A stretch of DNA of 5,154 nt from a virus (lineage: Duplodnaviria > Heunggongvirae > Uroviricota > Caudoviricetes): the IMG/VR virus record IMGVR_UViG_2606217117_000011; one strand, given 5' to 3'. A model generated the notes under the pieces. The model did no database searches, was not told the DNA's origin, and saw only the letters and a list, made by a program, of their open reading frames with translations. Positions within the stretch are counted from its first letter, which is position 1. Every line of letters starts with the position of its first letter. Shown piece after piece: positions 1 to 5,154 of the stretch. The position numbers and the translations under genes are program-made.

Positions 1-812
1 TCAGACGAACCGATGACTGGATGGATGGCCGCCGCAGTCGTCACACTGATGATACGGATGTGCTTCTCCGTATACACCATGTTATCGGAGAGCTGCCCAC
101 GTATGGTTATCGTCGGGTATGGGCGCTGCTTCGCAGACAGGCAGAACTTGATGGTATGCCTGCGATCAATGCCAAACGTGTTTACCGGATCATGCGCCAG
201 AATGCGCTGTTGCTTGAGCGAAAACCTGCTGTACCGCCATCGAAACGGGCACATACAGGCAGAGTGGCTGTGAAAGAAAGTAATCAGCGATGGTGCTCTG
301 ACGGGTTCGAGTTCCGCTGTGATAACGGAGAAAAACTGCGAGTCACGTTCGCGCTGGACTGCTGTGACCGTGAGGCACTGCACTGGGCGGTCACTACGGG
401 CGGCTTCAACAGTGAAACAGTACAGGACGTCATGCTGGGAGCGGTGGAACGCCGCTTCGGCAACGAGCTTCCGGCGTCTCCAGTAGAGTGGCTGACGGAT
501 AATGGTTCATGCTACCGGGCTAATGAAACACGGCAGTTTGCCCGGATGTTGGGGCTTGAACCGAAGAGCACGGCGGTGCGGAGTCCGGAGAGTAACGGCA
601 TAGCAGAGAGCTTCGTGAAAACGATAAAGCGTGACTACATCAGTGTCATGCCCAAACCAGACGGGTTAACGGCAGCAAAGAACCTTGCAGAGGCGTTCGA
701 GCATTATAACGAATGGCATCCGCATAGTGCACTGGGTTATCGCTCGCCACGGGAATATCTACGGCAGCAAGCCAGTAATGGGTTAAGTGATAACAGGTGT
801 CTGGAAATATAG
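1..812 (+). CDS. insD: IS2 transposase InsD (OrfB), 5'-truncated by the window edge; stop TAG at 810-812
   Basis: ORF-track protein 21..812 ([40 protein letters not shown]...[16 protein letters not shown]...[31 protein letters not shown]) matches my recollection of IS2 InsD over its whole length. The frame stays open upstream to base 3, so the true start is outside the window. Confidence 0.93.
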
Positions 813-823
813 GGGCAAATCCA
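783..823 (+). repeat. IS2 right terminal inverted repeat (approximate extent)
   Basis: Terminal sequence GGGTTAAGTGATAACAGGTGTCTGGAAATATAGGGGCAAATCCA ends the element. The exact inner boundary of the IR is from memory of IS2 (~41 bp), not computed. Confidence 0.65.
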
Positions 824-1213
824 TCCATTGAGCATTGCCGCAATTTCTTTTGTGGTGATGTCTTCAAGTGGAGCATCAGGCAGACCCCTCCTTATTGCTT
901 TAATTTTGCTCATGTAATTTATGAGTGTCTTCTGCTTGATTCCTCTGCTGGCCAGGATTTTTTCGTAGCGATCAAGCCATGAATGTAATGTAACGGAATT
1001 ATCACTGTTGATTCTCGCTGTCAGAGGCTTGTGTTTGTGTCCTGAAAATAACTCAATGTTGGCCTGTATAGCTTCAGTGATTGCGATTCGCCTGTCTCGG
1101 CCTAATCCAAACTCTTTACCCGTCCTTGGGTCCCTGTAGCAGTAATATCCATTGTTTCTTATATAAAGGTTAGGGGGTAAATCCCGGCGCTCATGACTTC
1201 GCCTTCTTCCCAT
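824..1213 (-). pseudogene. int: Lambda-type tyrosine integrase Int, N-terminal 130 codons only, truncated by the IS2 insertion
   Basis: Minus-strand ORF 737..1213 begins MGRRRSHERRDLPPNLYIRNNGYYCYRDPRTGKEFGLGRDRRIAITEAIQANIELFSGHKHKPLTARINSDNSVTLHSWLDRYEKILASRGIKQKTLINYMSKIKAIRRGLPDAPLEDITTKEIAAMLNG, matching lambda Int residues 1-130 as I recall them. After residue 130 the frame runs into IS2 terminal sequence ([11 protein letters not shown]...), so the catalytic C-terminal domain is absent on this side of IS2. Confidence 0.9.
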
Positions 1214-1409
1214 TTCTGATCCTCTTCAAAAGGCTACCTGTTACTGGTCGATTTAAGTCAACCTTTACCGCTGATTCGTGGAACAGATATTCTCTTCCAT
1301 CCTTAACCGGAGGAGGGAATATCCTGCATTCGCGCACCCATCGACGAACTGTTTCAAGGCTTCTTGGGCGTCGCTGGCGAGCGTTCCACTCCTGAAGTGT
1401 CAAGTACAT
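1191..1409 (-). CDS. xis: Excisionase Xis (72 aa), lambda-type; overlaps the int start by 23 nt as in lambda
   Basis: Protein MYLTLQEWNARQRRPRSLETVRRWVRECRIFPPPVKDGREYLFHESAVKVDLNRPVTGSLLKRIRNGKKAKS matches lambda Xis from memory. GGAG lies about 9 nt upstream of the ATG on the minus strand. Confidence 0.93.
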   Translation of the reverse strand: MYLTLQEWNARQRRPRSLETVRRWVRECRIFPPPVKDGREYLFHESAVKVDLNRPVTGSLLKRIRNGKKAKS

Positions 1410-1435
1410 CGCAAAGTCTCCGCAATTACACGCAA
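1395..1435 (-). promoter_or_regulatory. Putative pI-type CII-activated promoter (TTGC-N6-TTGC motif at 1422-1435, minus strand) overlapping the xis start
   Basis: Minus strand reads TTGCGTGTAATTGCGGAGACTTTGCGATGTACTTGACAC. TTGC-N6-TTGC is the CII recognition pattern of lambda pRE/pI/paQ promoters, and the position just upstream of and overlapping the xis ATG corresponds to lambda pI. The -10 element and transcription start were not mapped. Confidence 0.45.
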
Positions 1436-1460
1436 GAAAAAACCGCCATCAGGCGGCTTG
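1436..1460 (-). terminator. Candidate intrinsic terminator on the minus strand (stem CCGCC / loop UGAU / GGCGG, then UUUUUU) overlapping the stop of the 55-aa ORF
   Basis: Minus strand reads AAGCCGCCTGATGGCGGTTTTTTCTTGCG: a short GC-rich hairpin followed by a 6-T run. The stem is only 5-7 bp, so the call is weak. Confidence 0.4.
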
Positions 1461-1616
1461 GTGTTCTTTCAGTTCTTCAATTCGAATATTGGTTACGTCT
1501 GCATGCGCTATCTGCGCCCATATCATCCAGTGGTTATAGCAGTCGTTGATGTTCTCTGCTTCGATAACCCTGTTGAATGGCTCTCCATTCCATTCACCTG
1601 TGACTCGGAAGTGCAT
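1449..1616 (-). CDS. Small hypothetical protein, 55 aa (position and size equivalent to the small ORF between xis and ea8.5 in lambda)
   Basis: Not in the ORF track (below its length cut-off). Hand translation of the minus strand from ATG at 1616-1614 to TGA at 1451-1449 gives MHFRVTGEWNGEPFNRVIEAENINDCYNHWMIWAQIAHADVTNIRIEELKEHQAA. GGAG lies 7 nt upstream of the ATG. The spacing relative to xis and ea8.5 matches my recollection of the lambda map. Confidence 0.6.
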   Translation of the reverse strand: MHFRVTGEWNGEPFNRVIEAENINDCYNHWMIWAQIAHADVTNIRIEELKEHQAA

Positions 1617-1704
1617 TTATCATCTCCAAAAAACAAACCCCGCCGTAGCGAGTTCAGATAAAATAAATCCCCGCGAGTGCGAGGATTGTTATGTAATATT
1701 GGGT

Positions 1705-1986
1705 TTAATCATCTATATGTTTTGTACAGAGAGGGCAAGTATCGTTTCCACCGTACTCGTGATAATAATTTTGCACGGTATCAGTCATTTCTCGCACATT
1801 GCAGAATGGGGATTTGTCTTCATTAGACTTATAAACCTTCATGGAATATTTGTATGCCGACTCTATATCTATACCTTCATCTACATAAACACCTTCGTGA
1901 TGTCTGCATGGAGACAAGACACCGGATCTGCACAACATTGATAACGCCCAATCTTTTTGCTCAGACTCTAACTCATTGATACTCAT
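1705..1986 (-). CDS. ea8.5: Ea8.5 protein (93 aa), lambda b2-region gene of unknown function
   Basis: Protein MSINELESEQKDWALSMLCRSGVLSPCRHHEGVYVDEGIDIESAYKYSMKVYKSNEDKSPFCNVREMTDTVQNYYHEYGGNDTCPLCTKHIDD matches lambda Ea8.5 as I recall it. Strong RBS AAGGAG lies 6 nt upstream of the ATG on the minus strand (1993-1998). Confidence 0.88.
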   Translation of the reverse strand: MSINELESEQKDWALSMLCRSGVLSPCRHHEGVYVDEGIDIESAYKYSMKVYKSNEDKSPFCNVREMTDTVQNYYHEYGGNDTCPLCTKHIDD

Positions 1987-2037
1987 TTATAAACTCCTTG
2001 CAATGTATGTCGTTTCAGCTAAACGGTATCAGCAATG

Positions 2038-2062
2038 TGAACCGCCCCGGGTTTCCTGGAGA
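2038..2062 (-). repeat. Terminal inverted repeat of the IS3-family element (orfB-distal end)
   Basis: TGAACCGCCCCGGGTTTCCTGGAGA at 2038-2062, 18 bp beyond the orfB stop (2080-2082). The extent is approximate and cannot be confirmed against the left IR, which is outside the window. Confidence 0.6.
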
Positions 2063-2079
2063 GTATTTTATCTGTGAAC

Positions 2080-2600
<521 letters not shown>

Positions 2601-2603
2601 CCC

Positions 2604-2637
2604 GAACCGGACGTGCACCTTTCAGCGCATCCGGCTC
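2604..2637 (-). ncRNA. Group II intron domain V (catalytic hairpin)
   Basis: Minus strand GAGCCGGAUGCGCUGAAAGGUGCACGUCCGGUUC is 34 nt with the AGC triad, a GAAA-type loop and a 2-nt bulge, closely matching the domain V consensus GAGCCGUAUGCGAUGAAAGUCGCACGUACGGUUC. It starts 5 nt after the IEP stop codon. Confidence 0.88.
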
Positions 2638-2642
2638 TCCAT

Positions 2643-4166
2643 TTAAATGCTGGCGAACGCCATTGCCACTTCTGTAAAGCGCGATGTATACGTGTTTCTG
2701 GTCTCCGTCCTCAGATAGGGATTACCTTCGGGTAGCCGCCAGCGGAACAGCTTCTTGCCTTGCCCCACCAACCGGTACAGTATTTCGCCGCTGAGCTTGC
2801 CGTGATTGGTTTTACCAAATAAAACCCACGTTTTGCTCTGACCCGGTTTCGGTGATTTACACCACCACCTCATCAGGGAAGCGATACCTGTACGGTATTT
2901 GCGGGCCAGCCAGTGAGCCAGCTTCCAGAACACGACACGGTCGATATAACTGAAGACTTTGGCCTTAAAATCAACGAACTGATAGAACATGGCCCAGCCT
3001 TTCAGTTTTCGGTTGAGTTGTTCAGCCATATCGACTTTGCTTTCACTGTAGTTGCCTGATAACAGTGCTGTCAGCGATGCGGCGAAGTTTCTGGCTTTCT
3101 CCTGCGGGATCGTTGAGACCACTCGCATCTCGCCATAACGACTGCGTTTGCGAATGATCCTGTGCCCCAGAAAGATAAAGCCGTCATTAACATGGGTGAT
3201 TTTAGTCTTATCCATGTTCAGCCTGAGTTTCAGACTGCCTTCGAGCACACCCCGACACTCCTCCCTGATGGCTTCCGCCTGTGCTTTGGTGCCTTTGACG
3301 ATGAGGACAAAATCATCGGCATAGCGGCAGTACGCCACCGCGGGTTTCCACTGCCAGTTTTCTCTGACCGCCGTACTTCGGCCCCGTTGGATACTGTTAT
3401 TCCAGTACCACCGATCTTTTCTGGCTTTCCCGCTCAGGTAGCGCTCATGCAGGTATTGATCGAACTCATTCAGCATGATGTTCGATAATAGCGGCGATAT
3501 AACACCGCCCTGTGGCACACCTTCACTGGCCGCCCGAAAGAGACCGACATCGATATGTCCCGCCTTGATGGTTTTCCACAGCAGAGTCATGAAACGTGCG
3601 TCACTGATCCTGCGGCGTACAGCCTTCATCAGCAGTCGATGATGTACGGTGTCGAAGTAACTGGACAGGTCGCCTTCAATCACCCAGCGTCCCCGGGTTT
3701 CACCACAGTCTGTGAGCTGTAATTTCACCGTGCGGATCGCGTGGTGGACACTGCGCTCAGGCCGGAAGCCATATGAGAGCGTATGAAAATCACTCTCCCA
3801 TATCGGCTCCATCGCCATCAGCATGGCCCGCTGAACAATACGATCCCGCAACGCGGGGATACCCAGTGGTCGCAGTTTGCCGTTGCTTTTAGGGATGTAA
3901 ACCCGTCTGGCGGGCAAGGGCTGGTAGTGGCCTGAGAGTAATTCATCCCTGAGGATTTGCAGCTCAACAGCCAGTCTGGCCTGTAGCATTGTTTTGTTCA
4001 CGCCATCAACGCCGGGGGTATGGGCCCCCTTTGATGAAAGCGTGATCCGCGCCGCTTCAGCCAGCCATTCTGGTTGTGTTATCAGACGCAGCAGCCGTTG
4101 AATCCGTAGGGACGGATCGGTGACTGCCCATGTGGCAAGCTTGCGTTGCATTTCGCTGATTATCAA
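2643..4166 (-). CDS. Group II intron-encoded protein: reverse transcriptase/maturase (507 aa from TTG at 4166, or 502 aa from the first ATG at 4151)
   Basis: RT motifs are visible in the translation: KLRPLGIPALRDRIVQ (RT1), SYGFRPERSVHHA (RT2), GVPQGGVISPLLSNIMLNEFD (RT4), YCRYADDFVLIV (RT5 with YADD), LNMDKTKITH and GFIFLGHRI (RT6/7), followed by a maturase-like region (RNFAASLTALL...KLKGWAMFY). No Cys/His-rich HNH endonuclease block is seen at the C-terminus. Confidence 0.93.
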   Translation of the reverse strand: MIISEMQRKLATWAVTDPSLRIQRLLRLITQPEWLAEAARITLSSKGAHTPGVDGVNKTMLQARLAVELQILRDELLSGHYQPLPARRVYIPKSNGKLRPLGIPALRDRIVQRAMLMAMEPIWESDFHTLSYGFRPERSVHHAIRTVKLQLTDCGETRGRWVIEGDLSSYFDTVHHRLLMKAVRRRISDARFMTLLWKTIKAGHIDVGLFRAASEGVPQGGVISPLLSNIMLNEFDQYLHERYLSGKARKDRWYWNNSIQRGRSTAVRENWQWKPAVAYCRYADDFVLIVKGTKAQAEAIREECRGVLEGSLKLRLNMDKTKITHVNDGFIFLGHRIIRKRSRYGEMRVVSTIPQEKARNFAASLTALLSGNYSESKVDMAEQLNRKLKGWAMFYQFVDFKAKVFSYIDRVVFWKLAHWLARKYRTGIASLMRWWCKSPKPGQSKTWVLFGKTNHGKLSGEILYRLVGQGKKLFRWRLPEGNPYLRTETRNTYTSRFTEVAMAFASI

Positions 4167-4822
4167 AGGTCTTCACCTCGTTAGGTCAGTTAATTCACGT
4201 CGCAAACACATTCAAACTGCTTCCCTTCGCCATGTAATGGGCTTTCCCCATCGCGGACTACTACGGAAGCTCCGCCAGCCAGCGCGTCATCGGAGCCATG
4301 CCCCCTTAACATCCGTCGCTGACCTTCCCCGGTTTACCTGCCTGGACTCAGGCATACTGAGGAGGCTGCCCGTCGCACTCTTTATCCTTGCTTGCCGCAA
4401 GTTGGCAGAAGTCAGCAACGCAAGCGTGATAGACGCTGCTGCCCCGGTGTTTCGCATACATGTCAAAACACCTTCGACCGGCAGTGCTTACGTATCACTG
4501 CCAGTTCCTCCTGCACGGCCTGTCAGATCACGTAGGCCGTGGTGACGTTTTCAACCCACAGAGGCGGATTAACGGGTTCATGTTCTTCAGCCTTTCAGTA
4601 CTTAACCTTGAGGATCATCTCGGCTTAGTGATCTCGCCTCAATCCCCGTTGTCAGCGGGTTACATCACCCTGCGGGCATGCCGCAGGTCACTGCCGCTCA
4701 GGTTCTCCACCGTCACACCCGGTGGGATTGTTGGGTTTCTCATCGTGAGTTACCGGCTCAATATTCCAGACAGACTCGCGGTTCATTTAAGCATCCATGC
4801 CCGCCCTGAACTCCGGGCACAC
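4167..4822 (-). ncRNA. Group II intron 5' ribozyme portion (domains I-III and the 5' part of domain IV)
   Basis: Lies between the intron 5' end (GUGUG, 4818-4822 on minus) and the IEP start. Contains the EBS1-bearing hairpin CAGUG-AUACGUAAG-CACUG. The plus-strand ORFs in this interval (4120..4545, 4460..4831) have no recognisable protein features. Confidence 0.6.
4487..4492 (-). other. Putative EBS1 (5'-CGUAAG-3') in a hairpin loop of intron domain I
   Basis: Perfect Watson-Crick complement to the last 6 nt of the 5' exon (IBS1 5'-CUUACG-3', window 4823-4828 on minus). About 330 nt from the intron 5' end, flanked by the 5-bp stem CAGUG/CACUG. Confidence 0.55.
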
Positions 4823-5154
4823 CGTAAGTAAAATCAGCCACCCACAGCTGGTCAGGTCGTTCTGCCACGAACTGACGGTTTACGCGGTCGCCTGCGGCAA
4901 CGGCTTTCCGGCTGATGGTCGTACGGACCTTTTTACCCCGGAGAACACCGGCAAGTCCCATAACCGCCATGAGACGTGCCACAGTGCATCTGGCCACTCT
5001 GATACCTTCCCGTAACAACTGACGCCAGACTTTACGCACACCGTATACCTTGTGATTTTCATCGTATACGCGCTGTATCTCTTTCTTCAGCCAGTCATCG
5101 CGCTGCGCACGGGCACTGCGTTTATCCGGATGATGTCGCTGTTGCTGACAGTGG
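4823..5154 (-). CDS. IS3-family transposase OrfB, 5' exon portion (N-terminal/middle region; continues beyond the window end)
   Basis: Minus-strand frame is open from the window edge: HCQQQRHHPDKRSARAQRDDWLKKEIQRVYDENHKVYGVRKVWRQLLREGIRVARCTVARLMAVMGLAGVLRGKKVRTTISRKAVAAGDRVNRQFVAERPDQLWVADFTY, then the intron. The ORF track shows only the part from an internal GTG (4758..5039) and reads through into the intron. Confidence 0.85.

Follow-up and report, generated by a model that had tools for sequence, protein, structure and literature searches.

The group II intron E.c.I4 is found at a fixed position in the IS3-family transposase genes of four insertion sequences (ISs), IS629, IS911, ISEc16 and ISEc31, and is known as one fragment in Escherichia coli K-12 MG1655 and in up to 15 copies per genome, with less than 1% divergence within a strain (Leclercq and Cordaux, PMC3522654). 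In some strains up to 100% of its homing sites are filled, which has been explained by retrohoming (PMC3522654). E.c.I4 is 99% identical to S.f.I1 and belongs to class A, whose members lack an endonuclease (En) domain (Toro and Martinez-Abarca, PMC3552965); under the naming rule of the intron database, an intron takes the name of a reference to which it has more than 95% nucleotide identity (PMC3552965). Here we describe a 5,154-nucleotide stretch of viral DNA (IMG/VR virus record IMGVR_UViG_2606217117_000011; 'the window' below means this whole stretch), in which a group II intron interrupts an IS629-type element that adjoins a piece of lambda-like prophage, itself bordered on the other side by IS2. 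E.c.I4 was reportedly first described by Dai and Zimmerly in two papers of 2002. IS629-type elements carry orfA and orfB with a programmed -1 frameshift and produce a 3-bp target duplication; the target duplication of IS2 is 5 bp long. Insertion sequences accumulate in dispensable DNA, and insertions in defective prophages cost the host nothing.

The arrangement seen in the window very probably arose by two independent IS insertions into a lambda-like prophage, after which a group II intron entered one of the two ISs by retrohoming. Four components, recognized from a list of open reading frames (ORFs) and from Pfam and Rfam scans and delimited by alignment to reference copies, fill the window completely (823 + 1214 + 847 + 2270 = 5154; Table 1). 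An initial annotation, made by a model from the sequence, had allotted about 4 kb to mobile DNA and about 1.2 kb (824-2037) to prophage, and its anatomy is correct to the base; the element identities that it proposed (IS2, an IS629-like IS3-family element, a group II intron within the latter, and lambda-type prophage in between) are all supported. It had also spoken of three nested mobile elements. All three are present, but only the intron is nested, the IS2 and IS629-type elements lying side by side and flanking the prophage remnant. The arrangement is real but ordinary and already known: every part belongs to a described family and behaves as published.

Table 1. Features of the window, with positions, strands and the basis of each assignment
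Feature	Position	Strand	Basis and remarks
IS2 isoform, 3' 823 bp (IS2 positions 509-1331)	1..823	+	K-12 IS2A alignment, Pfam; left 508 bp and left flank outside window
Lambda-like prophage piece, 1214 bp	824..2037	genes on -	Lambda J02459 28493-29706, 98.6% identity
int, first 130 codons, cut by IS2 end	824..1213	-	Pfam Arm-DNA-bind_1 2e-33; window 824 = lambda 28493
xis (excisionase), complete, 72 amino acids	1191..1409	-	Pfam Exc 3.9e-41; lambda 28860-29078
Small lambda-type ORF (orf55), complete, 55 amino acids	1449..1616	-	ORF list; no Pfam family
ea8.5, complete, 93 amino acids	1705..1986	-	Pfam Lambda_ea8_5 1.1e-48; lambda 29374-29655
IS629-type (IS3-family) element, 3' part (intron 3' exon)	2038..2552	-	orfB C-terminal part from 2552, stop 2080-2082; Pfam rve, rve_3, rve_2
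Group II intron, E.c.I4 type, class A, 2270 nt, GUGUG...CUAC	2553..4822	-	Rfam RF00029; empty-site comparison
Domain VI	2555-2601	-	Predicted fold: single bulged A at 2559, 7 nt from 3' end
Domain V	2604-2637	-	Predicted fold: 34-nt hairpin with conserved AGC and GAAA loop
ltrA (reverse transcriptase/maturase, 502 amino acids), intact	2643-4151 (intron 672-2180)	-	Pfam RVT_1 1.5e-34, GIIM 1.3e-10
Exon-binding site 1 (EBS1) loop, CGUAAG	4487-4492 (intron 331-336)	-	9-nt loop of 10-bp hairpin, intron 318-346
IS629-type orfB, upstream part (intron 5' exon)	4823..5154	-	Pfam HTH_21 1.9e-18; runs off window

The limits of the intron were established by comparison with two E. coli chromosomes (loci L003 and L004) that have the IS in uninterrupted form. 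There the empty site reads ...GATTTTACTTACG/TCAGCACATGG (the slash marks the insertion point), whereas the window reads ...GATTTTACTTACG-GTGTGCCCGG...CTTACTCTAC-TCAGCACATGG; excising the intron rebuilds the empty site of both loci exactly, and a target duplication is absent, a pattern that retrohoming predicts and transposition does not. The intron lies in sense orientation within orfB, and its ends, GUGUG and AC, fit the GUGYG/AY rule of group II introns. Rfam family RF00029 (Intron_gpII, domains V and VI) matches 2553-2639 (-) over the full model (positions 1-77 of 77) with 64.9 bits against a gathering score of 40 (E=1.4e-11), and a permissive E-value Rfam scan of the window returned nothing besides these two intron domains. 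In the minimum-free-energy fold of the last 90 nt, the bulged A of domain VI stands where a branch point is expected, 7-8 nt from the 3' splice site. The EBS1 loop pairs at six of six positions, all Watson-Crick, with exon positions -6 to -1, CUUACG (intron-binding site 1, IBS1).

The gene for the intron-encoded protein ends just before domain V, which places a protein with reverse transcriptase and maturase (X) domains in domain IV. A TTG five codons upstream of the ltrA start gives the 507-amino-acid version in the ORF list, and a Pfam scan of that longer version found RVT_1 and GIIM only, with no endonuclease (HNH) domain. The sole residue by which the window protein differs from RefSeq allele WP_001189111.1 (L001 and L002) is V10 (codon 10, window 4123) in place of A10, and the exact 502-amino-acid window allele is very common, being present in 10,192 collection blocks.

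As in the published host genes, the window copy occupies the fixed homing position of an IS3-family transposase gene, here an IS629-type orfB. In the genome of K-12 MG1655, IS911A of the CP4-6 prophage (ykfC region) carries a 1764-nt 5' intron fragment cut short by IS5, the only intron fragment seen in that genome. Identity to the window intron is 99.7% for this 1764-nt piece and 99.2-99.7% in the ykfC region. From the matches to published host sites and to this K-12 fragment we strongly infer that the window carries E.c.I4, of bacterial class A. In K-12 the small-RNA gene eyeA (b4690) lies within the same truncated copy in IS911A and is identical at 75 of 75 positions to intron 390-464, in domain I (window 4359-4433, -; K-12 copy L016, 2081-2155). 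Judged by this identity, the annotated small RNA EyeA is a piece of a group II intron.

The initial annotation had raised the question of whether this intron occupies the corresponding site in other copies of the IS3-family element. It clearly does: in our survey set of 5426 complete E. coli genomes, the same 5' exon/intron junction was found in 1447, about a quarter (200-bp query, at least 80% of its length matched), which agrees with the published behaviour of E.c.I4 (PMC3522654). The intron sequence as such is present in 2347 of the surveyed genomes, in 1874 of them at full length (80% of the query or more), while 3068 have an uninterrupted IS629-type copy (spliced 847-bp query). Most of 2884 E. 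coli records have the intron with at least 99% identity to the window copy, and the RefSeq annotations under the intron and junction matches include IS629 and ISEc31. Copies at least 99% identical are also inserted at the homologous codon of an IS911-type gene (...GTGACCTATA/TCTGGAC) and of a third type of IS3-family gene (...ATAACGTATA/TCCCTAT). EBS1 is unchanged in both, and among the three IS host types it pairs at all six positions with the IS629 site only. A comparison of L001 with the window gives 25 differences in the 515 positions of the IS 3' exon and 3 in the 2270 of the intron. An intron so much more uniform than its host IS has entered copies that had already diverged, and is thus younger than the divergence of its hosts, as retrohoming predicts.

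Some copies have departed from this pattern. Two have hybrid flanks, with an IS911-type 5' exon and an IS629-type 3' exon in L034 and an IS629-type 5' exon and a different 3' exon in L024, which suggests homologous recombination between intron copies residing in different IS elements. In the Stx1-converting phage LC727904.1 (L018, 4957-7231), a composite of IS629-type element and intron has no match to window 2161-2988, a gap that comprises most of the IS 3' exon, intron domains V and VI and the 3' end of ltrA. We considered this phage as a further instance of the window's arrangement and rejected it, since its layout is different and its composite is internally deleted; the sequence points to decay of such composites inside phage genomes.

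The proposed course of the invasion is as follows. An intron RNA-protein particle would recognize the IS629 site, in part because EBS1 CGUAAG base-pairs with exon CUUACG, and the intron would then reverse-splice into the DNA and be copied from a primer provided by the replication fork. The use of such a primer would be expected because the intron protein has no endonuclease.

The element that received the intron has its right terminal repeat at the prophage boundary. The repeat, TGAACCGCCCCGGGTTTCC, begins at 2038, where it opens with TGAACCGCCCCGGGTTTCCTGGAGAG, and matches the IS ends in the E. coli chromosomes of L003 and L004. Together with the terminal inverted repeat, a DDE (rve) OrfB (Pfam rve, rve_3, rve_2 and HTH_21) places the element in the IS629 type. 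Its 3' exon shares 98.9% identity with the intron-less IS of L004 and 94.9% with an IS1203 copy in L003; its 5' exon matches the IS copies of L004 and of a contig from IMG/VR (L020) at 100% identity. The window covers 847 of the element's approximately 1310 bp, with orfA, the frameshift site and the left terminal repeat beyond 5154; related IS629-type copies carry the frameshift and an AL1L pseudoknot annotation. When the intron is removed in silico, orfB has no stop codon across the joint. With the intron in sense orientation and both domains V and VI and the maturase intact, a spliced transposase transcript would regain an open orfB, its mRNA reading ...TTTACTTACG-TCAGCACATGG at the exon joint, and the intron-bearing element is therefore not necessarily dead, as far as its sequence indicates. 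Because splicing would restore the frame, the fragments flanking ltrA that appear as 'IS3 family transposase' pseudogenes should be annotated as a single IS629-type element with an intron.

At the other boundary of the prophage piece stands the end of IS2. Window 1-823 aligns with IS2A of E. coli K-12 (NC_000913 381260-382590) without gaps and collinearly, at 96.96% identity, above the 95% taken for membership. The IS2 OrfB/InsD frame, the 3' two-thirds of an IS3-family transposase gene, is open up to a stop at 810-812 and contains Pfam domains rve, rve_3 and HTH_21, and the right terminal repeat ends with ...GGGGCAAATCCA at 823. Copies 100% identical to this stretch are found in many E. coli chromosomes and plasmids, and the survey found an IS2-like copy (at least 80% of the query) in 4174 of 5426 genomes. 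By its sequence, then, the window copy is a distinct and widespread IS2 isoform. In RefSeq, copies 100% identical to it are labelled merely 'IS3 family transposase', and not IS2.

The IS2 end interrupts the integrase gene of the prophage. Lambda int extends over 27812-28882, and in the window its frame continues into the IS2 end, giving a chimeric ORF of 158 amino acids (737-1213, -), 130 from the arm-binding region of Int and 28 encoded by IS2; the exact chimeric product is not on record in a large protein collection. The claim in the initial annotation that the prophage is being degraded by insertions thus holds as far as the window shows, int being cut after codon 130. Membership in the lambda-type int-xis module follows from the 98.6% identity to lambda and from the Arm-DNA-bind_1 and Exc domains, and identity to Escherichia phage PhiR11_1 is higher still, 99.8%. 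Many E. coli prophages encode the exact 55-amino-acid protein of orf55 alongside xis and int, and in relatives the int-xis-ea8.5 module sits at the lambda attachment site beside ybhC. At least in the visible part, IS2 parts the arm-binding from the catalytic domain of Int, so excision should be blocked, and with int disrupted this piece of prophage can probably no longer leave its site. The presence of two ISs in 1.2 kb of disabled prophage fits the rule that ISs build up in dispensable DNA.

The IS629-type element is inserted between lambda positions 29706 and 29707 (window 2037/2038), 51 bp upstream of the ea8.5 start codon, in the spacer between ea8.5 and ea22. Two other records have an IS629-type element at the same nucleotide, the chromosome of strain MMC-J-0105 (L004; 7215/7216) and the IMG/VR contig L020 (about 231/232). 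A crossover inside the IS cannot exchange the terminal repeat at the junction, and the window and these two records would accordingly represent separate insertions at one site; a homologous inversion between IS copies, considered as an explanation of the opposite orientation in L004 and L020, was rejected on the same ground, as the crossover leaves the junction-proximal terminal repeat unchanged. The use of both orientations at one nucleotide would imply either repeated site-specific insertion or the targeting of a second IS, possibly the whole composite of IS629 and intron, to the end of a resident one. With an IS1203 copy lying 194 bp further on in L003 and followed by a lysis gene, the spacer is one that has been hit repeatedly, in association with deletions. 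That it is a hot spot for IS629-type elements in lambda-like prophages, precise to the nucleotide (lambda 29706/29707) and used in both orientations, is a tentative idea that we consider rather doubtful. The reuse of one nucleotide position in both orientations is the only mildly unexpected point.

Several observations weigh against the explanation by two IS insertions followed by retrohoming, or against parts of it. The window contains a single end of each IS, with the target-site duplications out of view, so that a simple insertion would look the same as an IS-mediated deletion or a recombination event. The IS629-type element of L004 and L020 is oppositely oriented, intron-less and followed directly by the lambda O gene, about 9 kb being missing, and the history of the site is therefore more complex than a single clean insertion. 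For the intron itself, the name E.c.I4 comes from published host sites and the K-12 fragment; the search for a second exon-binding site and its partner (EBS2/IBS2) gave only 5-nt candidates that include G-U pairs, such as UGAAA at intron 226 or 270, and no confident assignment; and the splicing and mobility of the window copy are predicted, with no more than indirect support from the distribution and divergence of the intron among genomes. The most serious competitor is a history in which the 1.2-kb prophage piece is what IS-mediated deletions or IS-IS recombination have left behind, the DNA beyond both ISs being unrelated to the prophage. The loss of 9 kb up to gene O in L004 and L020, the IS1203 copy followed by a lysis gene in L003, and the hybrid-flank introns of L024 and L034, which point to recombination across composites, all speak for it. 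Nothing within the window bears on it, since junctions exactly at the element termini fit either history, and we give it a real, if somewhat less than even, chance.

The intron need not have entered this particular IS copy by homing: a composite of IS629 and E.c.I4 (about 3.6 kb) might have transposed into the prophage as a unit, with transposase made from spliced mRNA or supplied in trans by other IS629 copies. Near-identical composites (99.9% over 3118 bp of IS and intron) do occupy several unrelated loci of GCA_041077845.1 (L029, L030 and L032), and others occur in many genomes and plasmids; the terminal repeat in the window is intact and the spliced orfB open; and the intron-less, oppositely oriented IS of L004 and L020 implies that the window copy was a separate arrival. 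Homing events are, however, required by an intron that is more uniform than its hosts (3/2270 against 25/515) and resides in three IS3-family genes, and the published filling of up to 100% of homing sites in some strains is explained by retrohoming (PMC3522654). We regard unit transposition as unlikely. Far less credible still is a faulty assembly in which repeated ISs were joined to the wrong unique flanks. Both ends of the window do fall in repeats, and its junctions were found in no other record of the collections searched in the orientation seen here: the IS2/int junction is absent from the 5426 complete E. coli genomes and from 186 genomes with the int-xis-ea8.5 module, and its exact 30-mer from GTDB species genomes, JGI metagenomes and IMG/VR; a 31-mer across the ea8.5/IS629 junction has no match in genomes or metagenomes and one in IMG/VR, the oppositely oriented, intron-less L020; and no locus in the complete E. 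coli genomes, PLSDB plasmids or GenBank phages covers at least 80% of the whole window. Yet each junction coincides exactly with the last base of an IS terminal repeat, the intron is precisely flanked by its cognate exons, and two further records independently show an IS629-type element at the nucleotide occupied in the window. Moreover, a false join within a repeat would leave the picture in the window unchanged. Two insertions into the prophage, with later retrohoming of the intron into one of them, thus remain the account that we favour.

From its three elements, the initial annotation had gone on to suggest a genome with a heavy IS load, Shigella-like or resembling pathogenic E. coli. The presence of IS2, IS629 and E.c.I4 is in itself not diagnostic of either a heavy load or a Shigella-like host, because each is common in ordinary E. 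coli (one-third to three-quarters of complete genomes) and none is a Shigella signature. The chromosome of L004 has at least 40 places matching a query with both IS ends, against a median of 7 per genome; this count is suggestive but says nothing direct about the genome from which the window derives. The locus is a textbook case of group II introns inside insertion sequences that themselves pile up in defective prophages, and its value lies mainly in correct annotation.

Each component of the window has a close described counterpart. The prophage piece resembles the int-xis-ea8.5 region of phage lambda in gene order and gene lengths, and departs from it in the interruption of int after codon 130 by IS2 and of the ea8.5-ea22 spacer by the IS629-type element. 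The IS2 copy is like K-12 IS2A in OrfB length, stop and terminal sequence and differs from it by 3% nucleotide divergence, as a variant that is widespread. With the IS629/IS1203/IS3411 group of the IS3 family the IS629-type element shares a terminal repeat beginning TGAACCGCCCCGGG... and a DDE (rve) OrfB; it is 95-97% identical to the annotated IS1203 copy, and its exon-intron junction stretch is 100% identical to copies annotated in RefSeq as 'IS3-like element IS629 family transposase', whereas its orfB, unlike that of the group, is split by an intron. RmInt1 of Sinorhizobium meliloti, which resides in ISRm2011-2, is a further group II intron within an insertion sequence, but it is of class D rather than class A, in another host IS family and in another bacterium. 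The mobility of RmInt1 has been demonstrated experimentally, and we know of no comparable experiments for E.c.I4. The counterpart of the window intron is E.c.I4 (S.f.I1 of Shigella flexneri), and no meaningful difference between them was found: both have IS629- and IS911-type hosts and a protein with reverse transcriptase and maturase domains and no endonuclease domain, and they are alike in the single truncated K-12 copy in IS911A at ykfC, in high copy number and in a divergence below 1% within the species.

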